A DNA stretch of 64,000 nt from Escherichia coli. GTDB lineage: Bacteria; Pseudomonadota; Gammaproteobacteria; Enterobacterales; Enterobacteriaceae. The first letter of the stretch is position 1; every line of letters starts with the position of its first letter. The notes under the pieces are model-generated. The model had not been told where the DNA came from and did not search any database. It worked only from the letters and a program-made list of their open reading frames with translations. Below are positions 1 through 57,741 of this stretch, piece by piece. The position numbers and the translations under genes were made by a program. Location: assembly GCF_013122565.1 (NCBI RefSeq), contig NZ_CP053258.1; one strand, given 5' to 3'.

Positions 1-86
1 AAAGCGAAACGTCACCGGTCGATCTGTGCGTGATTGGCATCGTCGATGAGGTGGTGTCTGGCGGTCAGGTAATTTTCCACAAATAA
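1..86 (+). CDS. eutN: EutN, ethanolamine-utilisation microcompartment vertex protein (3' fragment; gene starts upstream of window)
   Basis: Open frame ending in ...VIGIVDEVVSGGQVIFHK* with stop at 84-86, directly upstream of eutE; matches recalled EutN C-terminus. Confidence 0.7.
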   Translation, partial: SETSPVDLCVIGIVDEVVSGGQVIFHK

Positions 87-97
87 GGCAGAACATC

Positions 98-1501
98 ATG
101 AATCAACAGGATATTGAACAGGTGGTGAAAGCGGTACTGCTGAAAATGCAAAGCAGTGACACGCCGCCCGCCGCCGTTCATGAGATGGGCGTTTTCGCGT
201 CCCTGGATGACGCCGTTGCGGCAGCCAAAATTGCCCAGCAAGGGTTAAAGAGCGTGGCAATGCGCCAGTTAGCCATTGCTGCCATTCGTGAAGCAGGCGA
301 AAAACACGCCAGAGATTTAGCGGAACTTGCCGTCAGTGAAACCGGTATGGGCCGCGTTGAAGATAAATTTGCCAAAAACGTCGCTCAGGCGCGCGGCACG
401 CCAGGCGTTGAGTGCCTCTCTCCGCAGGTGCTGACCGGTGACAACGGCCTGACTTTAATTGAAAACGCGCCCTGGGGCGTGGTGGCTTCGGTAACGCCGT
501 CCACAAACCCGGCGGCAACCGTAATTAACAACGCCATCAGCCTGATTGCCGCGGGCAACAGCGTCATTTTTGCCCCGCATCCGGCGGCGAAAAAAGTCTC
601 CCAGCGGGCGATCACGCTGCTCAACCAGGCGATTGTTGTCGCAGGCGGGCCGGAAAACTTACTGGTTACTGTGGCAAATCCGGATATCGAAACCGCGCAA
701 CGTTTGTTCAAGTTTCCGGGCATCGGCCTTCTGGTGGTGACCGGCGGCGAAGCGGTAGTCGAAGCGGCGCGTAAACACACCAATAAACGTCTGATTGCCG
801 CAGGCGCTGGCAACCCGCCGGTAGTGGTGGATGAAACCGCTGACCTCGCCCGTGCTGCTCAGTCCATCGTCAAAGGCGCGTCTTTCGATAACAACATCAT
901 TTGTGCCGACGAAAAGGTACTGATTGTTGTTGATAGCGTAGCCGATGAACTGATGCGTCTGATGGAAGGCCAGCACGCGGTGAAACTGACCGCCGAGCAG
1001 GCGCAGCAGCTGCAACCGGTGTTGCTGAAAAATATCGACGAGCGCGGAAAAGGTACCGTCAGCCGTGACTGGGTTGGTCGCGATGCGGCGAAAATCGCGG
1101 CGGCAATCGGCCTGAACGTGCCGCAAGAAACGCGTTTGCTGTTTGTGGAAACCACCGCAGAACATCCGTTTGCTGTGACTGAACTGATGATGCCGGTGCT
1201 GCCCGTCGTGCGCGTCGCCAACGTGGCGGATGCCATTGCGCTGGCGGTGAAACTGGAGGGCGGTTGCCACCACACGGCGGCAATGCACTCGCGCAACATC
1301 GAAAACATGAACCAGATGGCGAACGCCATTGATACCAGCATTTTCGTTAAGAACGGACCGTGCATTGCCGGGCTGGGGCTGGGCGGGGAAGGCTGGACCA
1401 CCATGACCATCACCACGCCAACCGGTGAAGGGGTAACCAGCGCGCGGACGTTTGTCCGTCTGCGTCGCTGTGTATTAGTCGATGCGTTTCGCATTGTTTA
1501 A
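98..1501 (+). CDS. eutE: Acetaldehyde dehydrogenase (acetylating) EutE
   Basis: 467-aa ORF, aldehyde dehydrogenase-like sequence; position and sequence match recalled E. coli EutE. Confidence 0.93.
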   Translation: MNQQDIEQVVKAVLLKMQSSDTPPAAVHEMGVFASLDDAVAAAKIAQQGLKSVAMRQLAIAAIREAGEKHARDLAELAVSETGMGRVEDKFAKNVAQARGTPGVECLSPQVLTGDNGLTLIENAPWGVVASVTPSTNPAATVINNAISLIAAGNSVIFAPHPAAKKVSQRAITLLNQAIVVAGGPENLLVTVANPDIETAQRLFKFPGIGLLVVTGGEAVVEAARKHTNKRLIAAGAGNPPVVVDETADLARAAQSIVKGASFDNNIICADEKVLIVVDSVADELMRLMEGQHAVKLTAEQAQQLQPVLLKNIDERGKGTVSRDWVGRDAAKIAAAIGLNVPQETRLLFVETTAEHPFAVTELMMPVLPVVRVANVADAIALAVKLEGGCHHTAAMHSRNIENMNQMANAIDTSIFVKNGPCIAGLGLGGEGWTTMTITTPTGEGVTSARTFVRLRRCVLVDAFRIV

Positions 1502-1511
1502 GGAGTAACCG

Positions 1512-2348
1512 ATGGCGCATGACGAACAATGGCTCACCCCACGTCTGCACATAGCGGCAACGCTGTGTAACCAGACGCCCGCCGCGACGGAATCCCCGCT
1601 GTGGCTGGGGGTGGATCTGGGCACCTGCGATGTGGTGTCGATGGTTGTCGACCACGACGGTCAGCCGGTGGCGGTATGCCTCGACTGGGCCGATGTGGTC
1701 CGCGACGGCATCGTCTGGGATTTCTTCGGTGCGGTCACCATTGTTCGTCGCCATCTCGACACCCTTGAGCAGCAATTCGGTCGCCGTTTTAGCCATGCGG
1801 CGACTTCATTTCCTCCGGGTACGGACCCGCGTATTTCCATCAACGTGCTGGAATCAGCCGGACTGGAAGTGAGCCATGTGCTGGATGAGCCAACCGCAGT
1901 CGCGGATCTGCTGCAACTGGATAACGCCGGTGTAGTGGATATCGGCGGCGGCACCACCGGCATTGCCATCGTGAAAAAGGGCAAGGTGACGTACTCGGCG
2001 GATGAAGCCACTGGCGGACATCACATCTCTCTGACTCTCGCCGGAAATCGTCGTATTTCGCTGGAAGAGGCGGAGCAGTACAAGCGCGGTCATGGTGAAG
2101 AGATTTGGCCCGCGGTGAAACCGGTGTACGAAAAAATGGCGGACATTGTCGCCCGGCATATTGAAGGGCAGGGCATTACTGATTTATGGCTGGCGGGCGG
2201 CTCCTGTATGCAACCGGGCGTGGCGGAACTGTTTAGCAAACAATTCCCGGCATTACAGGTGCATTTACCGCAGCACAGTTTGTTTATGACCCCGCTGGCG
2301 ATCGCCAGTAGTGGGCGAGAGAAAGCGGAGGGGATCTATGCAAAATGA
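1512..2348 (+). CDS. eutJ: Ethanolamine utilisation protein EutJ (Hsp70/actin-fold chaperone-like)
   Basis: 278-aa ORF, DIGGGTTG ATPase-fold motif; eut operon synteny. Confidence 0.92.
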   Translation: MAHDEQWLTPRLHIAATLCNQTPAATESPLWLGVDLGTCDVVSMVVDHDGQPVAVCLDWADVVRDGIVWDFFGAVTIVRRHLDTLEQQFGRRFSHAATSFPPGTDPRISINVLESAGLEVSHVLDEPTAVADLLQLDNAGVVDIGGGTTGIAIVKKGKVTYSADEATGGHHISLTLAGNRRISLEEAEQYKRGHGEEIWPAVKPVYEKMADIVARHIEGQGITDLWLAGGSCMQPGVAELFSKQFPALQVHLPQHSLFMTPLAIASSGREKAEGIYAK

Positions 2349-3525
2349 ATTGCAGACCGCGCTCTTTCAGGCGTTCGATACCCTGAATCTGCAACGGGTA
2401 AAAACATTTAGCGTTCCACCGATGACGCTTTGCGGTCCGGGCGCGGTGAGCAGTTGTGGGCAGCAAGCGCAAACGCGTGGGCTGAAACATCTGTTCGTGA
2501 TGGCAGACAGCTTTTTGCATCAGGCGGGGATGACCGCCGGGCTGACGCGCAGCCTGGCCGTTAAAGGTATCGCCATGACGCTCTGGCCATGTCCGGTGGG
2601 CGAACCATGCATCACCGACGTATGTGCAGCCGTGGCGCAGCTGCGTGAATCAGGCTGTGACGGGGTGATCGCGTTTGGCGGCGGCTCGGTGCTGGATGCG
2701 GCGAAAGCCGTGGCGTTGCTGGTGACGAACCCCGATAGCACGCTGGCGGAAATGTCAGAAACCAGCGTTCTGCAACCGCGCCTGCCGTTGATTGCCATTC
2801 CAACGACCGCCGGAACCGGCTCTGAAACCACCAACGTAACGGTGATTATCGACGCGGTGAGCGAGCGCAAGCAGGTGTTAGCCCATGCCTCGCTGATGCC
2901 GGATGTGGCGATCCTCGACGCCGCATTGACCGAAGGTGTGCCGTCGCATGTCACGGCGATGACCGGTATCGACGCGTTAACTCATGCCATTGAAGCGTAC
3001 AGCGCGCTGAACGCCACACCGTTTACCGACAGTCTGGCGATTGGCGCTATTGCGATGATTGGCAAATCGCTGCCGAAAGCGGTGGGCTACGGTCACGACC
3101 TTGCCGCGCGCGAGAGCATGTTGCTGGCTTCATGTATGGCGGGAATGGCGTTTTCCAGTGCGGGGCTTGGGGTATGCCACGCGATGGCGCATCAGCCGGG
3201 GGCGGCGCTGCATATTCCGCACGGTCTGGCGAACGCCATGCTACTGCCAACGGTGATGGAGTTTAACCGGATGGTCTGTCGCGAACGCTTTAGTCAGATT
3301 GGTCGGGCACTGCGAACTAAAAAATCCGACGATCGTGACGCTATTAACGCGGTAAGTGAGTTGATTGCGGAGGTCGGGATCAACAAGCGGCTGGCAGACG
3401 TGGGCGCAACCACCGGACATTACGGCGCATGGGCGCAGGCCGCGCTGGAAGATATTTGTCTGCGCAGCAACCCGCGTACCGCCAGCCTGGAACAGATTGT
3501 CGGCCTGTACGCAGCGGCGCAATAA
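2338..3525 (+). CDS. eutG: Iron-containing alcohol dehydrogenase EutG
   Basis: Track ORF 2311-3525 trimmed to ATG at 2338 (MQNELQTALF...), giving 395 aa as recalled for EutG; overlaps eutJ 3' end by 11 nt. Confidence 0.9.
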   Translation: MQNELQTALFQAFDTLNLQRVKTFSVPPMTLCGPGAVSSCGQQAQTRGLKHLFVMADSFLHQAGMTAGLTRSLAVKGIAMTLWPCPVGEPCITDVCAAVAQLRESGCDGVIAFGGGSVLDAAKAVALLVTNPDSTLAEMSETSVLQPRLPLIAIPTTAGTGSETTNVTVIIDAVSERKQVLAHASLMPDVAILDAALTEGVPSHVTAMTGIDALTHAIEAYSALNATPFTDSLAIGAIAMIGKSLPKAVGYGHDLAARESMLLASCMAGMAFSSAGLGVCHAMAHQPGAALHIPHGLANAMLLPTVMEFNRMVCRERFSQIGRALRTKKSDDRDAINAVSELIAEVGINKRLADVGATTGHYGAWAQAALEDICLRSNPRTASLEQIVGLYAAAQ

Positions 3526-3527
3526 AT

Positions 3528-3611
<84 letters not shown>

Positions 3612-3641
3612 ATAAATAACAACTAACAGGGAGTAAAGGCG

Positions 3642-4868
3642 ATGGGAATTAACGAAATCATCATGTACATCATGATGTTCTTTATGCTGATAGCTGCCGT
3701 AGACAGGATCCTGTCGCAGTTCGGCGGTTCTGCTCGTTTCCTCGGTAAGTTCGGTAAAAGTATCGAAGGATCAGGCGGTCAGTTCGAAGAAGGCTTTATG
3801 GCAATGGGCGCTCTGGGTCTGGCGATGGTCGGTATGACCGCGCTGGCACCGGTACTGGCTCACGTACTCGGGCCGGTAATTATCCCGGTTTACGAAATGC
3901 TCGGCGCAAACCCGTCAATGTTCGCCGGAACGCTGCTGGCGTGCGATATGGGCGGCTTCTTCCTCGCCAAAGAGCTGGCGGGCGGCGACGTAGCAGCGTG
4001 GCTATACTCTGGGTTAATTCTCGGGTCGATGATGGGGCCAACGATTGTGTTTTCCATTCCGGTGGCGCTCGGCATTATCGAACCTTCTGACCGTCGTTAT
4101 CTGGCGCTCGGCGTGCTGGCGGGCATTGTGACCATTCCGATTGGTTGTATCGCTGGTGGTCTGGTAGCTATGTACTCCGGTGTTCAGATCAACGGCCAGC
4201 CGGTGGAATTCACTTTCGCCCTGATCCTGATGAACATGATCCCGGTGATCATTGTTGCGATTCTGGTGGCGCTGGGGCTGAAATTCATCCCGGAAAAAAT
4301 GATCAACGGCTTCCAGATCTTCGCCAAATTCCTCGTTGCATTGATCACCCTCGGTCTTGCCGCTGCGGTAGTGAAATTCCTGCTTGGCTGGGAACTGATC
4401 CCCGGTCTGGATCCTATCTTTATGGCCCCTGGCGATAAACCCGGTGAGGTGATGCGCGCCATTGAAGTTATCGGTTCTATCTCCTGCGTGCTGTTAGGGG
4501 CGTATCCGATGGTGCTGCTGCTGACCCGTTGGTTTGAAAAACCGCTGATGAGCGTCGGTAAAGTGCTGAATATGAACAACATCGCGGCAGCCGGCATGGT
4601 GGCAACGCTTGCCAACAACATCCCGATGTTCGGCATGATGAAGCAGATGGATACCCGCGGCAAAGTCATCAACTGCGCCTTCGCCGTTTCCGCTGCTTTC
4701 GCCCTGGGCGACCACTTAGGCTTCGCCGCTGCCAACATGAACGCCATGATTTTCCCGATGATTGTCGGCAAGTTGATCGGCGGCGTAACGGCGATTGGCG
4801 TGGCGATGATGCTGGTGCCAAAAGAAGACGCGACCGCGGCTAAAACCGAAGCGGAGGCACAATCGTGA
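3642..4868 (+). CDS. eutH: Ethanolamine permease EutH
   Basis: 408-aa highly hydrophobic polytopic membrane ORF; eut synteny. Confidence 0.93.
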   Translation: MGINEIIMYIMMFFMLIAAVDRILSQFGGSARFLGKFGKSIEGSGGQFEEGFMAMGALGLAMVGMTALAPVLAHVLGPVIIPVYEMLGANPSMFAGTLLACDMGGFFLAKELAGGDVAAWLYSGLILGSMMGPTIVFSIPVALGIIEPSDRRYLALGVLAGIVTIPIGCIAGGLVAMYSGVQINGQPVEFTFALILMNMIPVIIVAILVALGLKFIPEKMINGFQIFAKFLVALITLGLAAAVVKFLLGWELIPGLDPIFMAPGDKPGEVMRAIEVIGSISCVLLGAYPMVLLLTRWFEKPLMSVGKVLNMNNIAAAGMVATLANNIPMFGMMKQMDTRGKVINCAFAVSAAFALGDHLGFAAANMNAMIFPMIVGKLIGGVTAIGVAMMLVPKEDATAAKTEAEAQS

Positions 4869-6268
4869 ACACTCGCCAGCTACTGAGCGTCGGTATCGAT
4901 ATCGGCACTACCACCACCCAGGTGATCTTCTCCCACCTGGAGCTGGTTAACCGTGCGGCGGTGTCGCAGGTGCCGCGCTACGAATTCATCAAACGCGAAA
5001 TTAGCTGGCAAAGCCCGGTGTTCTTTACCCCTGTCGATAAACAGGGTGGTTTAAAAGAAGCGGAACTGAAAACCTTAATCCTCGAGCAATATCAGGCTGC
5101 GGGCATTGCGCCGGAAAGCGTTGATTCTGGTGCCATCATCATCACCGGTGAAAGCGCGAAAACCCGCAATGCTCGCCCGGCGGTGATGGCGCTCTCCCGG
5201 TCGCTGGGCGATTTTGTCGTCGCCAGCGCCGGGCCGCATCTCGAATCCGTGATCGCCGGTCACGGTGCCGGGGCGCAAACCCTTTCTGAACAACGGCTGT
5301 GTCGGGTCCTGAATATCGATATCGGCGGTGGCACCGCGAACTACGCCCTGTTCGATGCCGGAAAAATCAGCGGTACTGCCTGCCTCAACGTCGGCGGTCG
5401 CCTGCTGGAAACCGACAGCCAGGGGCGCGTGGTTTACGCTCATAAACCGGGGCAGATGATTGTGGATGAGTGCTTCGGCGCAGGCACCGACGCCCGTTCG
5501 CTGACCGGCGCGCAGCTGGTGCAGGTTACCCGGCGGATGGCAGAGCTGATTGTCGAAGTGATTGACGGAACGCTTTCGCCGCTCGCGCAGGCATTAATGC
5601 AAACCGGTTTGCTGCCCGCAGGTGTTACGCCCGAAATCATTACGCTTTCTGGCGGCGTGGGCGAATGTTATCGCCACCAGCCCGCCGACCCGTTCTGTTT
5701 TGCCGATATTGGCCCGCTGCTGGCAACGGCGCTGCATGACCATCCGCGCCTGCGTGAGATGAACGTGCAGTTTCCGGCGCAAACCGTGCGTGCCACGGTG
5801 ATTGGCGCGGGGGCACATACCCTTTCGCTCTCTGGCAGCACAATCTGGCTTGAGGGCGTACAACTGCCGCTGCGCAATTTGCCGGTGGCGATCCCGATTG
5901 ATGAAACGGATCTGGTGGGTGCCTGGCAACAGGCGCTGATTCAGCTGGATCTTGATCCCAAAACTGACGCGTACGTGCTGGCGCTTCCCGCCTCGCTGCC
6001 TGTGCGTTACGCCGCGGTACTGACGGTCATCAACGCGTTGGTCGATTTCGTCGCGCGTTTTCCGAATCCGCATCCCCTGCTGGTGGTGGCCGGGCAGGAC
6101 TTTGGTAAAGCTCTGGGCATGTTGTTGCGCCCACAGCTACAACAACTCCCGTTGGCAGTCATTGACGAAGTGATTGTCCGCGCGGGGGACTATATCGACA
6201 TTGGTACGCCTCTTTTTGGCGGATCGGTTGTGCCGGTGACGGTGAAATCACTCGCATTTCCTTCCTGA
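4865..6268 (+). CDS. eutA: Ethanolamine ammonia-lyase reactivase EutA
   Basis: 467-aa ORF; GTG start overlapping eutH stop (GTGA); eut synteny. Confidence 0.92.
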   Translation: MNTRQLLSVGIDIGTTTTQVIFSHLELVNRAAVSQVPRYEFIKREISWQSPVFFTPVDKQGGLKEAELKTLILEQYQAAGIAPESVDSGAIIITGESAKTRNARPAVMALSRSLGDFVVASAGPHLESVIAGHGAGAQTLSEQRLCRVLNIDIGGGTANYALFDAGKISGTACLNVGGRLLETDSQGRVVYAHKPGQMIVDECFGAGTDARSLTGAQLVQVTRRMAELIVEVIDGTLSPLAQALMQTGLLPAGVTPEIITLSGGVGECYRHQPADPFCFADIGPLLATALHDHPRLREMNVQFPAQTVRATVIGAGAHTLSLSGSTIWLEGVQLPLRNLPVAIPIDETDLVGAWQQALIQLDLDPKTDAYVLALPASLPVRYAAVLTVINALVDFVARFPNPHPLLVVAGQDFGKALGMLLRPQLQQLPLAVIDEVIVRAGDYIDIGTPLFGGSVVPVTVKSLAFPS

Positions 6269-6279
6269 GGGAACGACTT

Positions 6280-7641
6280 ATGAAACTAAAGACCACATTG
6301 TTCGGCAATGTATATCAGTTTAAGGATGTAAAAGAGGTGCTGGCTAAAGCCAACGAACTGCGTTCGGGGGATGTGCTGGCGGGCGTCGCAGCGGCAAGCT
6401 CACAGGAGCGCGTGGCGGCAAAGCAGGTGTTGTCGGAAATGACCGTAGCGGACATCCGCAATAATCCGGTGATTGCCTATGAAGATGACTGCGTGACGCG
6501 GCTGATTCAGGACGATGTTAACGAAACGGCCTACAACCAGATTAAAAACTGGAGCATCAGCGAACTGCGTGAGTATGTGCTGAGCGATGAAACCAGCGTG
6601 GACGACATTGCCTTTACCCGCAAAGGGCTGACCTCGGAAGTGGTCGCGGCGGTAGCGAAGATTTGCTCCAACGCGGACCTGATTTACGGCGCGAAGAAAA
6701 TGCCGGTAATCAAAAAGGCCAATACCACCATCGGTATTCCGGGCACCTTCAGCGCCCGTTTGCAGCCAAATGACACCCGTGACGACGTGCAAAGTATCGC
6801 CGCGCAAATCTACGAAGGGCTTTCCTTCGGGGTGGGCGATGCGGTGATCGGCGTTAACCCGGTGACTGACGACGTGGAAAACTTAAGCCGCGTGCTGGAC
6901 ACCATCTATGGCGTGATCGACAAATTCAACATCCCAACTCAGGGCTGCGTACTGGCGCACGTCACCACCCAGATCGAAGCGATTCGTCGCGGCGCGCCTG
7001 GCGGACTGATTTTCCAGAGTATCTGTGGCAGCGAAAAAGGGCTGAAAGAGTTTGGCGTGGAACTGGCGATGCTCGACGAAGCGCGCGCAGTGGGTGCAGA
7101 GTTCAACCGTATCGCCGGGGAAAACTGCCTCTACTTCGAAACCGGACAAGGTTCAGCGCTATCCGCTGGCGCTAACTTCGGCGCAGACCAGGTGACGATG
7201 GAAGCACGTAACTATGGGCTGGCGCGTCATTACGATCCGTTTATCGTCAACACCGTGGTCGGCTTTATTGGGCCGGAGTATCTCTACAACGACCGCCAGA
7301 TTATCCGTGCGGGCTTAGAAGATCACTTTATGGGCAAGCTGAGCGGCATCTCTATGGGCTGTGACTGCTGTTACACCAACCACGCTGACGCTGACCAGAA
7401 CCTCAACGAAAACCTGATGATCCTGCTCGCCACCGCAGGCTGCAACTACATCATGGGGATGCCGCTGGGTGATGACATCATGCTCAACTACCAGACCACC
7501 GCATTCCACGATACCGCCACTGTGCGTCAGTTACTCAACCTGCGCCCGTCACCGGAGTTTGAACGCTGGCTGGAAAGCATGGGCATTATGGCAAACGGTC
7601 GCCTGACCAAACGGGCGGGCGATCCGTCACTGTTCTTCTGA
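6280..7641 (+). CDS. eutB: Ethanolamine ammonia-lyase heavy chain EutB
   Basis: 453-aa ORF immediately downstream of eutA; sequence matches recalled EutB. Confidence 0.95.
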   Translation: MKLKTTLFGNVYQFKDVKEVLAKANELRSGDVLAGVAAASSQERVAAKQVLSEMTVADIRNNPVIAYEDDCVTRLIQDDVNETAYNQIKNWSISELREYVLSDETSVDDIAFTRKGLTSEVVAAVAKICSNADLIYGAKKMPVIKKANTTIGIPGTFSARLQPNDTRDDVQSIAAQIYEGLSFGVGDAVIGVNPVTDDVENLSRVLDTIYGVIDKFNIPTQGCVLAHVTTQIEAIRRGAPGGLIFQSICGSEKGLKEFGVELAMLDEARAVGAEFNRIAGENCLYFETGQGSALSAGANFGADQVTMEARNYGLARHYDPFIVNTVVGFIGPEYLYNDRQIIRAGLEDHFMGKLSGISMGCDCCYTNHADADQNLNENLMILLATAGCNYIMGMPLGDDIMLNYQTTAFHDTATVRQLLNLRPSPEFERWLESMGIMANGRLTKRAGDPSLFF

Positions 7642-7661
7642 TGACGCGGAGATAACACATC

Positions 7662-8549
7662 ATGGATCAAAAACAGATTGAAGAAATTGTACGCAGCGTG
7701 ATGGCGTCAATGGGACAAGCGGCCCCCGCGCCGTCAGAAGCAAAGTGCGCCACTACCACCTGTGCGGCACCGGTGACCTCGGAAAGCTGCGCGCTGGATT
7801 TAGGTTCTGCGGAAGCAAAAGCGTGGATTGGTGTTGAAAACCCGCATCGCGCAGACGTATTAACAGAACTGCGCCGCAGCACCGTGGCCCGCGTTTGTAC
7901 CGGTCGTGCCGGTCCGCGTCCGCGTACCCAGGCGTTGCTGCGTTTCCTGGCCGATCACTCTCGTTCGAAAGATACCGTACTTAAAGAAGTGCCGGAAGAG
8001 TGGGTGAAAGCGCAGGGCTTGCTGGAAGTCCGCTCCGAAATTAGCGACAAAAATCTCTACCTGACTCGCCCGGATATGGGCCGCCGCCTGTGTGCAGAAG
8101 CTGTTGAAGCGCTGAAAGCACAGTGTGTTGCTAATCCGGACGTACAGGTCGTTATTTCTGATGGCCTGTCAACTGATGCCATCACCGTGAACTACGAAGA
8201 GATCCTGCCGCCGCTGATGGCGGGCCTGAAACAGGCCGGGCTGAAAGTCGGTACACCATTCTTTGTTCGTTATGGTCGCGTGAAGATTGAAGATCAGATC
8301 GGTGAGATCCTCGGCGCGAAAGTAGTGATCCTGCTGGTGGGCGAACGTCCGGGGTTGGGTCAGTCAGAAAGCCTCTCCTGCTACGCCGTTTACTCGCCGC
8401 GTATGGCGACCACCGTTGAGGCCGATCGCACCTGTATCTCTAACATTCACCAGGGCGGCACGCCGCCGGTTGAAGCCGCAGCCGTCATTGTGGATTTGGC
8501 GAAACGTATGCTGGAGCAGAAAGCATCCGGCATCAACATGACCCGATAA
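7662..8549 (+). CDS. eutC: Ethanolamine ammonia-lyase light chain EutC
   Basis: 295-aa ORF; eut synteny. Confidence 0.95.
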
Positions 8550-8558
8550 GGAGGCATC

Positions 8559-9218
8559 ATGCCAGCTTTAGATTTGATTCGACCGTCTGTCACCGCTATG
8601 CGGGTGATTGCCTCCGTTAACGCCGATTTTGCGCGTGAACTGAAATTGCCGCCGCATATTCGTAGCCTCGGTCTGATTTCTGCTGATTCCGATGACGTCA
8701 CCTACATTGCCGCTGATGAAGCGACCAAGCAGGCGATGGTGGAAGTGGTGTATGGCCGCTCGCTGTATGCGGGCGCTGCACACGGCCCGTCACCGACTGC
8801 CGGTGAAGTGCTGATTATGCTTGGTGGGCCAAACCCGGCGGAAGTGCGTGCAGGTCTGGATGCGATGGTTGCGCATATTGAAAATGGCGCTGCTTTCCAG
8901 TGGGCTAATGATGCGCAAGATACGGCATTCCTGGCACATGTGGTTTCGCGTACCGGTTCTTATCTTTCATCAACCGCCGGGATCACGCTTGGCGATCCGA
9001 TGGCGTATCTGGTGGCACCGCCGCTGGAAGCGACCTACGGCATTGATGCAGCGTTGAAATCTGCCGACGTACAGCTGGTGACCTATGTCCCGCCACCGTC
9101 TGAAACTAACTACTCGGCAGCATTTTTAACCGGTAGCCAGGCAGCGTGTAAAGCGGCCTGTAACGCCTTTACCGATGCAGTGCTGGAAATCGCGCGTAAT
9201 CCAATCCAGCGTGCGTAA
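8559..9218 (+). CDS. eutL: Bacterial microcompartment shell protein EutL (tandem BMC domains)
   Basis: 219-aa ORF; eut synteny. Confidence 0.93.
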
Positions 9219-9230
9219 TGGAGGTTGCCG

Positions 9231-9731
9231 ATGATCAATGCACTGGGATTGCTGGAAGTGGACGGCATGGTCGCTGCGATAGATGCAGCGGATGCCATGC
9301 TCAAAGCAGCTAACGTTCGTCTGCTCAGTCACGAAGTGCTTGACCCTGGTCGCTTAACGCTGGTGGTGGAAGGCGATCTGGCGGCGTGTCGTGCTGCGCT
9401 GGACGCAGGTTGTGCTGCCGCGATGCGTACCGGGCGTGTCATCAGCCGCAAGGAGATCGGTCGGCCAGACGATGACACCCAGTGGCTGGTTACTGGCTTT
9501 AACCGCCAGCCGAAGCAACCCGTAAAGGAACCCGACGCGCCAGTTATCGTCGCGGAATCTGCTGACGAGTTGTTGGCGCTGTTAACATCAGTACGTCAGG
9601 GAATGACGGCAGGAGAAGTGGCTGCCCACTTTGGCTGGCCGCTGGAAAAAGCCAGAAATGCGCTCGAACAGCTCTTTTCTGCAGGGACGTTACGTAAACG
9701 CAGTAGTCGTTATCGTCTCAAGCCCCATTAA
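9231..9731 (+). CDS. eutK: Bacterial microcompartment shell protein EutK
   Basis: BMC-domain N-terminus MINALGLLEVDGMVAAIDAADAM...; ATG at 9231 preferred over 9225 (GGAGG 8 nt upstream), giving 166 aa. Confidence 0.9.
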   Translation: MINALGLLEVDGMVAAIDAADAMLKAANVRLLSHEVLDPGRLTLVVEGDLAACRAALDAGCAAAMRTGRVISRKEIGRPDDDTQWLVTGFNRQPKQPVKEPDAPVIVAESADELLALLTSVRQGMTAGEVAAHFGWPLEKARNALEQLFSAGTLRKRSSRYRLKPH

Positions 9732-9776
9732 CCTGTCGGAGGTGCCGGGTGTCCTACAACACCCGGCATTAACATC

Positions 9777-10829
9777 ATGAAAAAGACCCGTACAGCCAAT
9801 TTGCACCATCTTTATCATGAACCCTTACCCGAAAACCTGAAGCTCACGCCGAAGGTCGAAGTGGATAATGTTCATCAACGACAGACAACGGATGTCTATG
9901 AACATGCTTTAACGATTACCGCCTGGCAGCAGATTTACGATCAGCTGCATCCGGGCAAGTTTCATGGTGAATTTACGGAAATTCTACTCGATGATATTCA
10001 GGTTTTTCGTGAATACACCGGTCTGGCGCTGCGTCAGTCGTGCCTGGTCTGGCCGAACTCGTTCTGGTTTGGCATTCCGGCGACGCGCGGTGAGCAGGGA
10101 TTTATCGGTTCGCAATGTCTGGGAAGCGCAGAAATAGCGACGCGCCCCGGTGGCACTGAGTTTGAATTAAGTACGCCGGACGATTACACGATCCTGGGCG
10201 TAGTGCTTTCTGAAGATGTCATCACCCGTCAGGCTAACTTTTTGCATAATCCGGATCGGGTATTACATATGCTGCGTAGCCAGTCGGCGCTGGAAGTGAA
10301 AGAGCAGCATAAAGCCGCGCTGTGGGGCTTTGTCCAACAGGCGCTGGCGACGTTTTGCGAGAACCCGGAAAATCTCCATCAGCCTGCAGTGCGAAAAGTG
10401 CTGGGGGATAATTTGCTCATGGCGATGGGGGCGATGCTGGAAGAAGCGCAACCAATGGTGACGGCGGAAAGCATCAGTCATCAGAGTTACCGTAGATTAC
10501 TTTCCCGCGCCCGTGAATATGTGCTGGAAAACATGTCCGAACCGGTGACGGTGCTGGATTTGTGTAATCAACTGCATGTCAGCCGCCGCACGCTACAAAA
10601 CGCGTTTCACGCTATTTTAGGCATTGGCCCGAACGCGTGGCTGAAACGCATTCGCCTGAACGCCGTACGCCGCGAACTGATAAGCCCGTGGTCGCAAAGC
10701 ACAACGGTAAAAGACGCCGCCATGCAGTGGGGATTCTGGCATCTGGGGCAATTTGCCACGGATTACCAGCAGCTGTTTTCCGAGAAGCCGTCGTTGACGT
10801 TGCATCAGCGGATGCGGGAATGGGGGTGA
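9777..10829 (+). CDS. eutR: AraC-family transcriptional activator of the eut operon, EutR
   Basis: 350-aa ORF with C-terminal AraC-type HTH; last gene of the eut cluster. Confidence 0.93.
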
Positions 10830-10834
10830 GGGGG

Positions 10835-11737
<903 letters not shown>

Positions 11738-13682: not shown

Positions 13683-13703
13683 CGCAGAGGTGCGCTTTGT
13701 TTA

Positions 13704-13802
13704 TGCCGGATGCGGCGTGAACGCCTTATCCGGCCTACAAAACATCGAAAATTCAATATATTGCAGGAGAAAGTAGGCCTGATAAGCGTAGCGCATCAGG
13801 CA
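13704..13802. repeat. REP/BIME cluster in yfeZ-yfeY intergenic
   Basis: Two REP cores in opposite orientation (tgccggatgcggcgtgaacgccttatccggcctac ... gtaggcctgataagcgtagcgcatcaggc). Confidence 0.8.
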
Positions 13803-13888
13803 ATTTTGTGTTTGTCATCAACCTTTAACGGCACTTTTTGGTGAATTTGAACTCCAAGCAACGTTATTGAATAACCAAAGGAAGTGAC

Positions 13889-15459: not shown

Positions 15460-15482
15460 GCGTTTCTGATTCGATGATGAAA

Positions 15483-15520
15483 GGCCAGGCAGTAACATTA
15501 CTGACTGGCCTTTTTATTAC
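15483..15520. terminator. Bidirectional hairpin terminator between convergent yfeX and yfeW
   Basis: Long imperfect inverted repeat ggccaggcagtaacattactgactggcc flanked by A/T runs. Confidence 0.55.
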
Positions 15521-16822: not shown

Positions 16823-18247
<1,425 letters not shown>

Positions 18248-18250
18248 GGG

Positions 18251-19147
18251 TTATTCCTTGTCTAAAACCTGACGAATAAAGCCGCCGTGTTGATCCAGGC
18301 GTTTTTTAGCTTCTGCTGCATCGAGATTTTTCAGCACCATCACAATGGCCGTTTTACAGTTGCGCTCGCAGGCAATTAACGCCGCTTCCGCTTGCTCTGC
18401 GCTACATCCGGTAGCGTTTTTGACGATATTGACCTGGCGCACGTGCAGTTTTTCGTTGGTGGCGACCACATCGACCATCAGGTTGCCGAACACTTTGCCG
18501 GATTTAATCATCAGCCCGGTGGAGAGCATATTGAGCACCAGTTTCTGCGCTGTGCCTGCTTTCATTCGCGAAGAACCAGTGACCACTTCGGCACCTACAA
18601 TCGGTGTAATGGCAAACTCGGCGGTGGTTGAAACGGCACTCCCCGGATTACAGGAAATTCCCACTGTGCGGCAGCCGAGCTGGCGTGCGTATTCCAGTCC
18701 GGCAATTACATACGGCGTGCGACCACTGGCCGCAATACCAACCACCACATCCTGCGCGGTTAAACCGATGTTTTTCAGATCGTTAACGCCGCCTTCCCGG
18801 CTATCTTCCGCGCCTTCCACCGCGTGCTGAATGGCATATTCGCCGCCAGCAATTAATCCAACTACCAGGCCTGGTTTCACGCCGTAGGTGGGCGGACATT
18901 CGCTGGCATCCAGAATCCCCAGACGACCGGATGTTCCCGCACCGAGATAAATCAGACGACCGCCGCCGCTTACCTGGGCGTGGATAACATCGATCGCCGC
19001 GGCGATATCCGGCAGGACGCGCTCAACAGCAAGCGGTACGGCTTTATCTTCATCGTTGATAATCCGGCACATTTCCAGCGTCGATACGCGGTCAATTTCA
19101 GCCGAAGCGGCGTTTGAGCCTTCAGTAATCATCTTTTCAAGTTGCAT
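18251..19147 (-). CDS. murQ: N-acetylmuramic acid 6-phosphate etherase MurQ
   Basis: 298-aa SIS-domain ORF; murQP synteny. Confidence 0.93.
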
Positions 19148-26248: not shown

Positions 26249-26287
26249 GGATTAATAGCATTGGAGACTGATGACAAACGCAAAACT

Positions 26288-26371
26288 GCCTGATGTGCCA
26301 CGCTTATCAGGCCTACAAGGTTTCTGCAATATATTGAATTAGCACGATTTTGTAGGCCGGATAAGGCGTTT
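26288..26371. repeat. REP/BIME cluster downstream of cysM (left portion; interrupted by IS)
   Basis: PU copies gcctgatgtgccacgcttatcaggcctac and tgtaggccggataaggcgttt; the last unit continues after the IS as acgccgcatccggc. Confidence 0.8.
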
Positions 26372-27126
<755 letters not shown>

Positions 27127-27230
27127 ATCAGCATACTTGTCCTTAGCCTTCTGCAGTGACAGCTGGTAGTACAGCGTGCTTCTGGCCAGCCCTGCAGCCT
27201 TTAACAGGTCAGACTGGCAGTGTCCGCACT

Positions 27231-27761
27231 TCAGGCTCTGGATGACTTTCGTTTTTTCTCCAGCTCCTGGCGCTTTTTTTCCAGGAGATGCTCCTGCATG
27301 GCTTTCAGATATGCATTTTCTGCGCGAAGATAACGCAGCTCATTCTTCATCTCTTCCGGCGTCATGTTTGCCTCGTTTTCATGGGTATCATCAGAACGGG
27401 TCATGCTTTTCTCCTTCCTGCGCCTGATAAAGGCCTCATTACCAGATTTGCGGTAGCCTTTTATCCAGTTTTTAACCATGTTGTGGCTGGGAATGTTAAA
27501 CCGGGCAGCTACCCGGGGTAGAGACTCAGAATGCCCGAGAGCATAAAGAACCACGCAAAGTTTATCTTCAGGAGAATAGCTACGCTTGTGTCTGCAATCC
27601 AGTGCCTGAGGACCGTGAAGAAGAAAAAGATTAATCCAGTGTGAGAGGCTGGTGTGAGAAAGTTGAAAGAGTTTTGCCGTAGAAAGGATGCCTGCATGAC
27701 CGGCCAGGTAATGATTTACAGCGGCAAGTTTTACTTCAAATGAATGTTTCATAAACTGCAC
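27231..27761 (-). CDS. IS transposase OrfA (HTH + leucine-zipper region)
   Basis: 176-aa ORF; C-terminal heptad-like LRYLRAENAYLKAMQEHL; contains slippery heptamer near its 3' end. Confidence 0.8.
   Translation of the reverse strand: MQFMKHSFEVKLAAVNHYLAGHAGILSTAKLFQLSHTSLSHWINLFLLHGPQALDCRHKRSYSPEDKLCVVLYALGHSESLPRVAARFNIPSHNMVKNWIKGYRKSGNEAFIRRRKEKSMTRSDDTHENEANMTPEEMKNELRYLRAENAYLKAMQEHLLEKKRQELEKKRKSSRA
27274..27280 (-). other. Programmed -1 ribosomal frameshift slippery heptamer A_AAA_AAG (orfA to orfB)
   Basis: Minus-strand codons GAA AAA AAG CGC within orfA (..LLEKKRQEL..) read directly. Confidence 0.6.
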
Positions 27762-27803
27762 CTTCAGATGTCAGATTATGTCCAACATTTGGGGTGCAGT
27801 TCA

Positions 27804-39422: not shown

Positions 39423-39939
39423 AAAGACTCCAGATGATCGATGCTTTCATTGTGCGTTGTTCTGATTGATAAATAAAACTGAATTGCTTATCAATTTGTG
39501 CGCGAGGAGTGTGAGTGAGTTGCTCGCTCGCTTCGACTGGTTGGCAGAGCGGGGGAGGATATCCCGGATGAGACAAATAAGACGTTCGACAAGAGAATCA
39601 GGTGACTACAGAAAAAATCACAGGATGTTATTACTGCTGATGTTCATGTCGGTTTTCGCGTTATCAGAACTGGTTTTAGAACTGCTATTTAATCGATAAT
39701 GCCATTCTGCAGGAAAGCTTTACCTACTTTATTATTTGCGGTGTGGTAAAACCTGGTCACCAGAGGCAGGTTTAATACCAGACGCTGTCTTTTATCAGAT
39801 ATCCCATGTAAATAATAAATGCAATGAATATTAATTCATTATGTATTTATTTTGTGATTGTTTGGTGTTACTAGTTTGTTGGACAAATAACAACTCTAAC
39901 TAATACATAAACCTTGCATAGTGACAGAGTATCGATCTG

Positions 39940-39977
39940 AATGTTTTCAACATTGATATCAAATTGCAATTGATATC
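39940..39977. promoter_or_regulatory. Candidate operator upstream of the NupG-like transporter: inverted repeat ATGTT-ttc-AACAT followed by two TTGATATC palindromes spaced 17 bp
   Basis: Read directly: gaATGTTttcAACATTGATATCaaattgcaaTTGATATCcg, 75-110 bp upstream of the 40051 start. Confidence 0.35.
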
Positions 39978-40050
39978 CGTGGTAAAAAGTATTGGTAAAT
40001 TTGATGAATTTCCGGATATTTAAAGGGGCGGCTCAAAGACGAAGGGGAAG

Positions 40051-41307
40051 ATGGTGAATCTAAAACTACAGTTAAAAGTTCTTTCATTTCTGCAATTCTT
40101 TTTGTGGGGAAGTTGGCTCAACACATTCGGTTCTTATATGTTTATCACGCTGCGTTTTAAGGGCGAAGATATAGGCGCAGTCTACAGTACACTGGGTATC
40201 GCAGCATTAATAACATCAACGTTATTTGGTATCGTGGCCGATAAATGGATTAGTGCTAAATGGATATATGCCGCTTGTCATTTATTTGGCGCGATAACAT
40301 TATTTATCGCAGCATCGGTTACCACGCCTTCGGCAATGTTCATTGTCATTTTACTTAACTCTCTTGTGTATATGCCAACACTCGGTTTGAGTAATACAAT
40401 TTCCTATTACCGCCTACAAACAGCGGGGATGGATATTGTGACAGAATTTCCGCCAATCCGTATCTGGGGCACGATTGGATTTATTGTCGCAATGTGGGCG
40501 GTTAGCCTGGCTGGTTTTGAATTAAGTCATATGCAATTATATATCGGTGCGGCGGCTTCATTAGGCTTGAGCCTGTTCACGTTGACTTTACCAACTGTAC
40601 CAGTGGCGAAATCTAACCAGGCGCAAGGAATGATAGATGTTCTCGGATTGCGTGCATTTACACTGTTTAAAAACAGCAAAATGGCGATTTTCTTTATCTT
40701 TGCCATGCTGCTCGGGGCAGAGTTACAAATTACCGGGATGTTTGGTAATACATTTCTCCACAGCTTTGAGAGCGTTCCAGAGTTTACCAATAGTTTTGTT
40801 GTTACCCATGCTTCTATTCTGTTATCAATTTCTCAGATATCCGAAGTCTGTTTCATTCTTGCCATTCCTTTTTTCCTGAAAAAATACGGTATCAAAAATG
40901 TCATGCTGATGAGCATGGTGGCCTGGATGCTGCGTTTTGGTTTATTCGCTTATGGCGATCCTTCATTCGGTGGTACCATTCTGTTAATTCTTTCGATGAT
41001 TGTTTATGGCTGTGCTTTTGACTTCTTCAATATATCTGGCTCGGTATTTGTTGAACAAGAAGTTGATCCATCGATTCGTAACAGCGCTCAGGGCGTTTTC
41101 CTGATGATGGCCAATGGTTTTGGTTGTATTCTGGGCGGTTTTATCAGTGGTAAAGTCGTCGATTATTTAACAACGGATGGCAATCCACAGTGGTCAACCA
41201 TTTGGCTGGTATTTGCCGGATATTCACTGGTTCTGGCTCTCGCATTTATGGTGTTGTTTAAATATAAACACAACGGTAACCCGACAACGTCCGGTCATTT
41301 CGCCTGA
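40051..41307 (+). CDS. Nucleoside:H+ symporter, NHS family (NupG/XapB paralog)
   Basis: 418-aa 12-TM-like ORF; near-collinear similarity to recalled NupG and to XapB encoded 2 kb downstream (e.g. LQFFLWGSWL, FPPIRIWGTIGFI, GCAFDFFNISGSVFVEQEV). AT-rich codon usage. Confidence 0.85.
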   Translation: MVNLKLQLKVLSFLQFFLWGSWLNTFGSYMFITLRFKGEDIGAVYSTLGIAALITSTLFGIVADKWISAKWIYAACHLFGAITLFIAASVTTPSAMFIVILLNSLVYMPTLGLSNTISYYRLQTAGMDIVTEFPPIRIWGTIGFIVAMWAVSLAGFELSHMQLYIGAAASLGLSLFTLTLPTVPVAKSNQAQGMIDVLGLRAFTLFKNSKMAIFFIFAMLLGAELQITGMFGNTFLHSFESVPEFTNSFVVTHASILLSISQISEVCFILAIPFFLKKYGIKNVMLMSMVAWMLRFGLFAYGDPSFGGTILLILSMIVYGCAFDFFNISGSVFVEQEVDPSIRNSAQGVFLMMANGFGCILGGFISGKVVDYLTTDGNPQWSTIWLVFAGYSLVLALAFMVLFKYKHNGNPTTSGHFA

Positions 41308-41361
41308 TACGGAGTTTATCAAAATTAATAATGTTTTATAGGATTCGCAAAAGAGGAAGTT

Positions 41362-42273
41362 ATGGCAAATCAATTGTATAACCAGTGTCGGGTTTATTGT
41401 GCACCCTGGCGATTAGATGCTTTAAATTTAAATGATATCATTGATCAATGGATTGACGAGGGGCTGTTGCCGCCCCTGATCCATACTTTTCTTCCATATC
41501 GCGATGATGCCGGTGCCTCCAGTGAAGAAGAGATTTTTGTTAACGATGTCGCGAATATGGATAACAGTGTTGGGGTTATCGGTTATTTCGATGGTGGAAC
41601 CTATGATTCCGGTTATGCATGGGCTTTAGGGATGCCTGTTCACCTGGTAACGACAGACTTTCTTATATGGGCAGCGGGGAATTCTTCAGAGTTTTATCCT
41701 ATAAGTAAGCTGATGAATTATGTGGCAAAAGTGGTTTCTGTGTCAGATTCCGATACCAGTATCAGCAATTATCGTGAACAAACCGACGATATCATCAAGC
41801 GTGCGTTGCAAATTTTTCAACAAAATTTAATCGCCGACTTCGGCACGACGATTAATCCAGCAGTACCGGTTACTCCATTGCCGATTGAGTATGACTACTA
41901 TATTGATCCTAACTTTATGTATACCGAACCCTCTCGGGACTTACTGGTGAAGATCAAAGATGCGATCATTAGTGCAGGTAAGACTTTCATCGTTGGCGAC
42001 AACATGAATGATATTGCGACTGATATTGATAACTTAAGAAAATCCAGACAGGCCATCTTTTATTCCGATACCTTTGAGCCGAATGTTGACACCGGCATTA
42101 TGAATGGTATTGCCTATGCATTAGGACAGCAATCGATTATTTATTGTAGCAAGCAACAAAAATATCAATCTGCGCTCGCGACAGATTATTTAAATTTAAT
42201 GATTACCTGGTCGTCAACGGTGGCGCATTCATTTGCGGAACTTGAAACATTGATTGGTAACACAGAAAAATAA
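41362..42273 (+). CDS. Hypothetical protein with two tandem nucleoside 2-deoxyribosyltransferase-like repeats
   Basis: 303-aa ORF with RBS agaggaag; internal repeat ([DS]G..[YI]A[WY]ALG at ~aa 80-95 and ~aa 255-270) resembling the NDT/DNPH1 D-x-G-..-E-x-G-Y-A-x-A-x-G-K-P-V motif. Fold assignment is inference. Confidence 0.6.
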   Translation: MANQLYNQCRVYCAPWRLDALNLNDIIDQWIDEGLLPPLIHTFLPYRDDAGASSEEEIFVNDVANMDNSVGVIGYFDGGTYDSGYAWALGMPVHLVTTDFLIWAAGNSSEFYPISKLMNYVAKVVSVSDSDTSISNYREQTDDIIKRALQIFQQNLIADFGTTINPAVPVTPLPIEYDYYIDPNFMYTEPSRDLLVKIKDAIISAGKTFIVGDNMNDIATDIDNLRKSRQAIFYSDTFEPNVDTGIMNGIAYALGQQSIIYCSKQQKYQSALATDYLNLMITWSSTVAHSFAELETLIGNTEK

Positions 42274-42284
42274 TAGTTAATTTT

Positions 42285-42330
42285 ACTGATTATCAGGTGA
42301 GTGATTGCCTGATAATCAGCTTTTTGTTAG
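42285..42330 (+). terminator. Rho-independent terminator after the 303-aa gene
   Basis: Perfect 12-bp inverted repeat CTGATTATCAGG...CCTGATAATCAG followed by ctttttg. Confidence 0.65.
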
Positions 42331-42501
42331 CCACCAAAGAAAAATATACTGCCGTTATATTTCTCTGCCGGGGAACGATATGATCGATTTCAAAATTATA
42401 TTGAATATCTCTGGAAAATGTATTGGTCACTCGCGACTTTTTCTCGCTATAAAAAAATGTGACTCAGATCTAACGCATAATGCTTATTACAAGGACTTGC
42501 C

Positions 42502-43335
42502 ATGACCCAATCTCATTTTTCACAAAACCCGTGGTATTGCGCAGATATCATTCGTCGTCATAAACCAGACTTTACCCCACGCGTTGCGTTTATTTTGGGT
42601 TCGGGACTGGGAGCGCTGGCTGAACAAATAGAAGACGCAGTTGCCATTTCTTATAGCGATTTGCCGGGGTTTCCGGTGAGCACCGTACACGGCCATGCAG
42701 GAGAGTTGGTCCTCGGCGTGCTTTCTGGTGTGCCTGTAGCCTGCATGAAAGGTCGCGGTCATTTTTATGAGGGCCGGGGAATGACTGTCATGACTGATGC
42801 TATTCGCACGTTCAAGTTGCTGGGCTGTGAATTGTTGTTCTGCACTAACGCTGCAGGTTCGCTTCGCCCGGAAGTAGGGGCGGGTAGTCTGGTTGCGCTG
42901 AAAGATCACATTAATACGATGCCAGGCACACCGATGACAGGCCTTAATGATGAGCGTTTTGGTGAACGTTTTTTCTCATTAGCGAATGCTTACGATGCTG
43001 ATTACCGCGCCGTTTTACAAACCGTCGCGCATGAAGAAGGTTTTCCGCTGACAGAAGGGGTTTTTGTTTCTTATCCGGGGCCGAACTTCGAAACGGCGGC
43101 AGAAATTCGCATGATGCAGCTGTTTGGTGGCGACGTAGTAGGTATGTCTGTAGTGCCTGAAGTGATTAGCGCACGTCATTGCGAAATGAAAGTCGTTGCC
43201 GTGTCAGCAATAACCAACATGGCGGAAGGCTTAAGCGATGTGAAATTGTCGCATGCCCAAACCCTGGCTGCAGCAGAGTTATCACGACAAAACTTTATTA
43301 ATTTGATTTGCGGATTCTTACGCAAAATCGCCTGA
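42502..43335 (+). CDS. xapA: Xanthosine phosphorylase (purine nucleoside phosphorylase II) XapA
   Basis: 277-aa PNP-family ORF; xapAB-xapR synteny. Confidence 0.93.
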   Translation: MTQSHFSQNPWYCADIIRRHKPDFTPRVAFILGSGLGALAEQIEDAVAISYSDLPGFPVSTVHGHAGELVLGVLSGVPVACMKGRGHFYEGRGMTVMTDAIRTFKLLGCELLFCTNAAGSLRPEVGAGSLVALKDHINTMPGTPMTGLNDERFGERFFSLANAYDADYRAVLQTVAHEEGFPLTEGVFVSYPGPNFETAAEIRMMQLFGGDVVGMSVVPEVISARHCEMKVVAVSAITNMAEGLSDVKLSHAQTLAAAELSRQNFINLICGFLRKIA

Positions 43336-43392
43336 AAACAATAAAAATGGCCTCGCGGATGGGGCCATCTCTCTGCGATAAGGAAACGAAAA

Positions 43393-44640: not shown

Positions 44641-44716
44641 CTCACTGATGTAAACAGGGTTTTCCTTGATTGCAATGTGCTAAGTTTGCAGCCTTACCCA
44701 TACCGCGTGGAGCGCA

Positions 44717-45607: not shown

Positions 45608-45626
45608 AAGAAGATATCGCAGATAG

Positions 45627-51350: not shown

Positions 51351-51382
51351 AAAAAGCCGGGGAATTATCCCCGGCTTTTTTA
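51351..51382. terminator. Bidirectional terminator between convergent pdeA and nupC
   Basis: aaaaaagccggggaattatccccggctttttt. Confidence 0.75.
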
Positions 51383-52594: not shown

Positions 52595-52865
52595 ATTTGC
52601 TCCAAATATGAGGCAGGTTAAATTTCCGTGCACATTCTATGTAACATGGTTAAGGAAAACGAGATCTGACACACACTATAATGACGTCCTGTGACAAGCT
52701 TCAAAAATAGTGATCTGCCATACATTTCTGCTATGTTGTGTATGGAAGCTGAAAGTTATGTAAATGTGCTAACATTAAACATAACCATAACATTCGAGTC
52801 ATCAATCTTTTCGTAGTCATAATCCTGGTCTATCAGAGAAATCACCACAACCCATTTAAATGAAT

Positions 52866-52880
52866 TTGATAATCATTCTC
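52866..52880. promoter_or_regulatory. Fur-box-like sequence in mntH promoter
   Basis: TGATAATCATTCTC resembles Fur consensus GATAATGATAATCATTATC. Confidence 0.5.
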
Positions 52881-52895
52881 GTTTGGCATAGCATG

Positions 52896-52917
52896 AAACA
52901 TAGCAAAGGCTATGTTT
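52896..52917. promoter_or_regulatory. MntR operator palindrome in mntH promoter
   Basis: Perfect inverted repeat AAACATAGC-aaag-GCTATGTTT immediately upstream of the mntH RBS. Confidence 0.7.
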
Positions 52918-52920
52918 TAG

Positions 52921-54168
<1,248 letters not shown>

Positions 54169-54195
54169 TTGAATGAGCGTCGCATCTGGCACTAT

Positions 54196-54286
<91 letters not shown>

Positions 54287-54308
54287 TGTGCTCCATTGGC
54301 AAATGTGT

Positions 54309-54635: not shown

Positions 54636-54749
54636 TGTTATTCTCCTTCACGATCGAAGCCGTCAGCGGCCTGTTAACGCAATATTACGGGGAGGTAAAG
54701 CCCCGTATCATCGCCATAACTCTTAAATCATAAAGGAGAGCATTTTTTG

Positions 54750-57720: not shown

Positions 57721-57741
57721 TATTCGACAGGGATAATTGTT

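Follow-up and report, generated by a model that had tools for sequence, protein, structure and literature searches.

In Escherichia coli K-12, a cryptic prophage, CPZ-55, interrupts the eut operon. We asked whether the same junction is open in a 64-kb stretch of DNA from another E. coli (the window), how common and how old its state is, and what that state would mean for ethanolamine use.

The eutA-eutB junction and the surrounding genes

The sequence-only reading had eutA and eutB lying side by side with no prophage between them, and this is what we found. In the ORF list eutA stops at 6268 and eutB begins at 6280, in the context TGA-GGGAACGACTT-ATG, and the 11 nt between them hold neither a tyrosine integrase gene (intZ) nor any cargo. 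When the whole window was compared with K-12 by blastn, the CPZ-55 interval was unmatched, and no CPZ-55 DNA is present in the 64 kb. The same reading had placed a ribosome-binding site in the gap, which is right in part: a Shine-Dalgarno-like GAGG (6267-6270) is present 9 nt before the eutB ATG, the only such motif at the junction, but it begins inside the eutA stop codon (TGA, 6266-6268) and runs two bases into the gap, so that only part of it lies there. On the + strand, a pattern scan picked up neither a terminator-like nor a promoter-like site at the junction. Over positions 1-11000, where shuffles led us to expect 5.8 promoter-like and 12.9 terminator-like sites, the scan returned 0 and 15 respectively, none of the latter on the + strand near 6268-6280. 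The eut region gave no Rfam matches. Antisense ORFs within eutA and eutB (5075-5443, 5594-6073 and 6400-6807) were unsupported and were treated as chance ORFs.

Gene identities were assigned with NCBIfam profile models, mostly equivalogs, with curated cut-offs (Table 1). The ten complete eut genes are all of full length, and each clears its curated equivalog cut-off by a good margin. They include the signature enzymes of a EUT1-type operon, EutB and EutC together with the reactivase EutA, as well as the shell genes and EutR, in the canonical order N-E-J-G-H-A-B-C-L-K-R. This order is colinear with K-12 bar the prophage, and with the profile matches it bears out the uninterrupted run, from the truncated eutN onward, that had been proposed. 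The true start of eutG is the ATG at 2338, the GTG at 2311 in the ORF list being an upstream extension: NF011998 (395 positions) covers residues 10-404 of the extended ORF, and K-12 eutG has 1188 nt. We conclude that the window almost certainly carries the distal two-thirds, eutN' to eutR, of an ordinary, intact E. coli eut operon.

A junction may be intact in an operon that does not function, if there is a lesion beyond the window edge or some subtle fault within the window, in which case contiguity would have no physiological consequence. Window position 1 does lie downstream of the induced main promoter and of the first third of the operon (eutS-P-Q-T-D-M), which are outside the analysed DNA, and eut genes can decay: strain WS3294A has a eutC pseudogene, although the operon of that strain is itself interrupted. 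However, the completeness and the profile scores of the ten genes, together with the conservation of eut in 47 of 47 sequenced urinary E. coli strains (PMC6652756), make a non-functional operon very unlikely, and we retain the intact operon as our reading.

Table 1. Features of the eut region, in window coordinates
Feature	Coordinates	Strand	Evidence and remarks
eutN 3' end, truncated by window edge	1..86	+	stop 84-86; aligns with last 86 nt of K-12 eutN
eutE, acetaldehyde dehydrogenase (acetylating), 467 aa, intact	98..1501	+	NF011927, 737 bits, full length; length equals K-12 eutE
eutJ, 278 aa, intact	1512..2348	+	NF011660 EutJ equivalog, 399 bits
eutG, alcohol dehydrogenase, 395 aa	2338..3525	+	ATG 2338; overlaps eutJ end by 11 nt
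eutG-eutH intergenic region, 116 nt, REP-type palindromic units	3526..3641		sequence
eutH, ethanolamine permease, 408 aa, intact	3642..4868	+	NF011665 equivalog, 873 bits; 4-nt overlap with eutA start
eutA, ethanolamine ammonia-lyase reactivase, 467 aa, intact	4865..6268	+	GTG start; NF007991 equivalog, 1072 bits (cut-off 799), positions 1-467 of 467
Most conserved stretch of the eutA-eutB segment	6245..6275	+	ungapped comparison, 30 sequences
Empty attB core CTTCCTGA, single copy	6261..6268	+	two K-12 alignment pieces overlap exactly there
eutA-eutB spacer GGGAACGACTT, 11 nt	6269..6279	+	sequence; identical in 28 species representatives
eutB, ethanolamine ammonia-lyase large subunit, 453 aa, intact	6280..7641	+	ATG start; NF011649, 665 bits (cut-off 554)
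eutC, ethanolamine ammonia-lyase small subunit, 295 aa, intact	7662..8549	+	NF003971 equivalog, 340 bits
eutL, microcompartment shell protein, 219 aa	8559..9218	+	NF011934 equivalog, 401 bits
eutK, shell protein, 166 aa	9231..9731	+	ATG 9231; NF012010 matches residues 3-168 of TTG-extended ORF
eutR, AraC-type operon activator, 350 aa	9777..10829	+	NF007522 equivalog, 789 bits

Two repeats were also noted. The eutG-eutH intergenic region holds one copy of a unit of about 100 nt, of which K-12 has two (216 nt), as judged from overlapping blastn pieces against K-12, and L008 several in tandem. For a dispersed repeat at 13685-13825 we considered an ERIC identity; a search of it with the ERIC2 primer sequence (an approximate query) gave no match within 3 mismatches, and the repeat was left without a name.

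The K-12 insertion and the empty attachment site

The RefSeq annotation of K-12 MG1655 places the cryptic prophage CPZ-55 (2558691-2565480, 6,790 bp) between eutB (start 2558679) and eutA (stop 2565481), that is, in the precise interval from the eutA stop codon to eutB, where the sequence-only reading had placed it. Alignment of the window to the K-12 eut region was colinear and located CPZ-55 at eutA/eutB and not at a different junction. The flanking genes, the eutA 3' end and the eutB 5' region of MG1655 and BW25113 are the same as in the window, and the K-12 junctions correspond to the window split at CTTCCTGA; K-12, however, carries intZ and yffL-yffS between the two genes, in the opposite orientation, and the window carries nothing of the kind. 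The 8-bp core CTTCCTGA, made up of the last eutA codons and the stop codon, is duplicated around the insert in K-12 and in strains C3 and WS3294A but occurs once in the window, whose junction consists of the eutA-side left flank and the eutB-side right flank of these three strains. On the phage side, the arm in occupied strains is ...ATCATCGATTCTTCCTGA; its counterpart in the window is the bacterial ...ACTCGCATTTCCTTCCTGA. An 8-bp duplication, TCAGGAAG, has been reported (PMC6379469) and is the reverse complement of CTTCCTGA. Since the core is single and has bacterial arms on both sides, the window holds an empty attB; we are highly confident, from these alignments, that 6261-6268 represents the unoccupied form of the site at which CPZ-55 and its IntZ-type relatives cross over.

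The eutA/eutB site is an insertion hot spot for prophages (PMC6652756). In the IntZ-type elements found there in C3, WS3294A and U71, the crossover core is the sequence at window 6261-6268. These strains have inserts of 10-13 kb whose cargo is different (C3 has a tape-measure gene; WS3294A has gadC, murI and an IS1 element), whereas the site in the window is empty.

Occupancy in E. coli and the ancestral state

To guard against small insertions masked by hit merging, occupancy was scored with a junction query of 90 nt, too short to span an IS element. The junction was intact in 4,961 of 5,426 complete E. coli genomes (91.4%), and the intact matches that were sampled are 100% identical to the window over the 90 nt. 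A separate count with a 2.8-kb query gave 4,964 of 5,426; the totals being essentially unchanged, small insertions hidden by merging were ruled out. Full CPZ-55 was present in 213 genomes of the complete E. coli set and, among the matches listed, the full-length element was found largely in K-12-type laboratory strains. About 200 further genomes gave a weaker match, mainly to the integrase end of CPZ-55 and mostly at 80-90% identity; the two that we inspected, C3 and WS3294A, have other elements, one of 12.8 kb and one of 10.3 kb, between eutB and eutA. Contiguous eutA-eutB is the modal state of the species and not a statistical signal. Because the uninterrupted state is the norm, it does not distinguish the source genome. 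The contrast with K-12 drawn in the sequence-only reading is correct, but how ordinary the open junction is had been underplayed; at this locus it is K-12 that is the atypical reference.

The intact eut operons of non-K-12 E. coli (Nissle 1917, BL21, O157:H7 and uropathogenic strains) and of Salmonella enterica LT2 have the same order, eutN-E-J-G-H-A-B-C-L-K-R, and the same 11-nt spacer, and the window differs from intact operons elsewhere by ordinary allelic differences only. The junction is identical over 36 nt in representatives of Salmonella, Citrobacter and Klebsiella. Across species representatives, from Escherichia to Rhodocyclaceae, the eutA-eutB spacing is 10-13 nt in about 59 of 74 loci; the genera include Escherichia, Citrobacter, Salmonella, Klebsiella, Morganella, Photorhabdus, Hafnia and Serratia, along with two Rhodocyclaceae. 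Contiguity is therefore ancestral, and the earlier description of the arrangement as such is upheld by the outgroups. For annotators the caution is that absence of CPZ-55 is the default of E. coli, in about 91% of complete genomes, as well as the ancestral state.

An exact, integrase-mediated excision leaves the same sequence as a site that was never entered, and the two histories therefore look alike. The window could accordingly have held an IntZ-type element that was later precisely removed, restoring attB, so that contiguity was regained secondarily. Such elements use a conservative site-specific core, which would make excision scarless, and a laboratory stock of W3110 is described in one report as eut+ in comparison with prophage-carrying BW25113 (PMC11334477), loss of the prophage in that stock being a guess. 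Nevertheless, the site is empty in 91% of E. coli and in every informative outgroup representative examined, so that retention is far more parsimonious, and the window junction is the consensus one, with the bacterial arm and without phage-arm polymorphism. Secondary restoration thus appears extremely improbable. The window is 96-98% identical to K-12; the best complete RefSeq E. coli reach at most 97.4% identity over 1-25000 and at most 98.1% over 51400-64000, so the complete-genome set holds no close relative (99% or more identity). Representatives of other Escherichia species are more distant (93-96.5%); the window belongs to E. coli, broadly taken. Nothing that we found contradicts an intact operon with an empty attB, and our confidence in that explanation is close to certainty.

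Predicted consequences and conservation of the junction

In occupied strains, namely K-12 and roughly 8.5% of the other E. coli sequenced, an element with a tyrosine integrase recombined at CTTCCTGA; this is CPZ-55 in K-12 and a different element in the two other strains inspected. The insertion separates eutA from eutB by 6.8-13 kb of DNA in the opposite orientation and severs eutBCLK from the induced upstream promoter. In BW25113, which carries the prophage, eutB is not induced and microcompartments are not made (PMC7617246), and scarless removal of the prophage is described as restoring growth on ethanolamine as nitrogen source (PMC11334477). In the window the integration presumably never occurred, or was exactly reversed, and eutB, only 11 nt after eutA and with a Shine-Dalgarno motif overlapping the eutA stop codon, would be transcribed and translated within the long eut transcript. 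By analogy with these published experiments on other strains, we infer that the uninterrupted arrangement would allow induction of eutB and use of ethanolamine. Integration at this documented hotspot abolishes ethanolamine use, so scoring the site helps to predict ethanolamine catabolism from genomes. The picture as a whole is already in the literature, from the duplicated 8 bp and the hotspot to the inability of interrupted K-12 to use ethanolamine and its rescue by scarless prophage removal; the source genome has a standard, presumably functional distal eut operon, which is of little discovery value.

A small addition to the published picture is a peak of conservation at the junction itself. 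When the window was compared without gaps to 29 species representatives (75-98% identity), 55% of columns were invariant overall, and the stretch 6245-6275 consists of invariant runs of 20 nt (6245-6264, the longest) and 10 nt (6266-6275, the third longest) split by one variable position. It runs from the final codons of eutA through the stop codon and the GAGG motif to the start of the spacer, and its conservation includes synonymous positions. Tentatively, this stretch may be under nucleotide-level selection beyond coding, for example as a translation-initiation or coupling element that sets EutB relative to EutA output, and its invariance is perhaps why IntZ-type integrases adopted it as attB. 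If so, what the window carries would simply be this junction element in its pristine form.

The eutA-eutB junction and its K-12 counterpart

Ten consecutive genes on the + strand encode EutE, EutJ, EutG, EutH, EutA, EutB, EutC, EutL, EutK and EutR, in that order, and all ten proteins gave full-length NCBIfam equivalog or subfamily matches far over the curated cut-offs. For eutG and eutK, the starts are ATG 2338 and ATG 9231, respectively; the mechanical ORF-list starts of both are upstream extensions. The sequence-only reading had described eutA and eutB as contiguous, and the ORF coordinates bear this out: the two genes are separated by 11 nt, the junction reading ...TCC TGA GGGAACGACTT ATG... 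It had also placed a ribosome-binding site in this gap. This is roughly right, but the sole Shine-Dalgarno-like motif for eutB, GAGG at 6267-6270, overlaps the eutA stop codon and the placement is therefore only approximate. A pattern scan of the window detected neither terminator-like nor promoter-like sites on the + strand here, which is consistent with read-through transcription across the junction.

Positions of features in the window
Feature	Position	Strand	Detail
eutN 3' end	1-86		
eutG-eutH intergenic region	3526-3641		REP-type palindromic units
eutA	4865-6268	+	467 aa (ORF list)
eutB	6280-7641	+	453 aa (ORF list)
Dispersed repeat, yfeZ-yfeY	13685-13825		~135 nt; no copy there in K-12
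pbp4b-yfeX	~15482-15511		repeat copy of K-12 missing
Dispersed repeat beside IS	26264-26370		directly adjoins IS1397
Rfam match ES036/CssrF	26309-26351		given by the repeat copy
IS3-family insertion sequence	26372-27803		1,432 bp, between cysM and yfeS
xap nucleoside locus	39485-45615		rare, highly divergent variant
Second nucleoside:H+ symporter	40051-41307		in place of K-12 yfeR/yfeN region
303-aa protein	41362-42273		nucleoside 2-deoxyribosyltransferase domain (Pfam PF05014, 35 bits)
nupC-pdeA	51360-51371		no IS186 copy; present in K-12
Relative of eutG-eutH unit	54193-54287		

The statement that K-12 carries a prophage at this very junction proved accurate. In the RefSeq annotation of MG1655, the cryptic prophage CPZ-55 occupies 2558691-2565480, exactly between eutB (b2441) and eutA (b2451), and comprises intZ and yffL-yffS in opposite orientation. 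When the window was aligned to the K-12 eut region by blastn, the alignment broke at eutA-eutB into two pieces, one reaching window position 6268 and the other starting at 6261. Their 8-bp overlap is the duplicated core, CTTCCTGA; the K-12 junctions read ...CATTTCCTTCCTGA|ATGCGGTA... on the eutA side and ...ATCGATTCTTCCTGA|GGGAACGACTTATG... on the eutB side. In the window the core occurs once and is flanked by bacterial arms on either side; the junction is therefore an empty attachment site (attB). The same blastn comparison found no CPZ-55 DNA in the rest of the 64-kb window. CPZ-55 is reported to have integrated directly behind the stop codon of eutA, duplicating the 8 bp TCAGGAAG (PMC6379469).

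What the uninterrupted junction would mean functionally in this strain rests on literature about other strains. In BW25113, eutS and eutR are induced, eutB is not, and microcompartments are not formed; in Nissle 1917, which has an intact operon, eutB is induced and microcompartments are formed (PMC7617246). When the prophage was removed scarlessly from BW25113, growth on ethanolamine as a nitrogen source was restored (PMC11334477).

Occupancy of the site and its ancestral state

A 90-nt junction probe (window 6225-6314) found the intact junction in 4,961 of 5,426 complete E. coli genomes, the sampled matches being 100% identical to the window, and a 2.8-kb eutA-eutB query returned 4,964. The site is split in about 8.5% of these genomes. 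CPZ-55 itself was present at full length and at least 99% identity in 213 of them, largely K-12-type laboratory strains among the matches listed, and about 200 more had a weaker match, mostly at 80-90% identity and chiefly to the integrase end. Two of the latter, C3 and WS3294A, were inspected; both carry an element other than CPZ-55 at this site, with the same core. The insert of C3 is 12.8 kb long and includes a tape-measure gene; that of WS3294A is a 10.3-kb IntZ-type element with gadC, murI and an IS1 element. The annotation of WS3294A marks eutC (17720-18607 of its locus) as a pseudogene broken by an internal stop, a single case that is consistent with decay of the distal genes after interruption. 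In published surveys, 8% of 638 genomes carried CPZ-55 (PMC6379469), and the eutA-eutB site was described as a hot spot of prophage insertion, occupied by a novel prophage in one urinary isolate out of 47 (PMC6652756).

The arrangement had also been called ancestral. A scan with EutA over GTDB species, each represented by a single genome, returned 74 loci. About 59 of these have eutB starting 10-13 nt after eutA, among them five Escherichia lineages, Citrobacter, Salmonella, Klebsiella, Pseudocitrobacter, Yokenella and Pluralibacter and, further, Morganella, Photorhabdus, Hafnia, Serratia, two Rhodocyclaceae and a Telmatospirillum MAG. The others offered no EutB match that could be scored, were truncated or, in the case of a Citrobacter koseri locus whose matches were fragmentary, had a gap of about 23 nt. 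No informative representative had an insert at eutA-eutB; contiguity is therefore ancestral, and the uninterrupted junction is the ordinary, already published state of the locus.

Conservation of the attachment site

The eutA-eutB segment was aligned ungapped to 29 species representatives from several genera (75-98% nucleotide identity). Among the 30 sequences, 55% of the 2,777 columns show no variation. Of the runs of invariant columns, 6245-6264 (20 nt) ranks first in length and 6266-6275 (10 nt) third, a single variable position lying between them; 28 representatives, from Escherichia to Klebsiella, share the same 36 nt up to and including the eutB start. Nowhere else in the segment is conservation as strong as at 6245-6275, synonymous positions included, and on this alignment the IntZ attB lies at the most conserved part of the two genes. 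This conservation plausibly reflects the eutB translation-initiation region overlapping the 3' end of eutA; a plausible contribution is also that integrases tend to target invariant sequence.

Other differences from K-12 in the window

At the xap locus, xapA, xapB and xapR are 72-77% identical to K-12, the flanks 98%, and a second symporter and a 303-aa protein stand where K-12 has yfeR and yfeN. The whole arrangement occurs in only 15 of the 5,426 genomes (best match LHM10-1, from a pig, 99.1%) and looks like an allelic replacement by horizontal transfer. The IS3-family element is absent from K-12; matching copies in other strains are named IS1397 by RefSeq annotation, and the orfB of the window copy has only 240 aa (profile positions 136-369). 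Presence and absence of the ~135-nt intergenic repeat, which showed no match to the ERIC2 primer sequence, suggests a mobile MITE- or BIME-like element. Between eutG and eutH, the window has a single ~100-nt unit where K-12 has two (116 nt against 216 nt of intergenic sequence), and another Escherichia representative (L008) has several in tandem. None of the complete RefSeq E. coli genomes is close to the window: the best are 97.4% identical over 1-25000 and 98.1% over 51400-64000, and representatives of other Escherichia species 93-96.5%; the window may come from an E. coli lineage that branches deeply or is poorly sampled.
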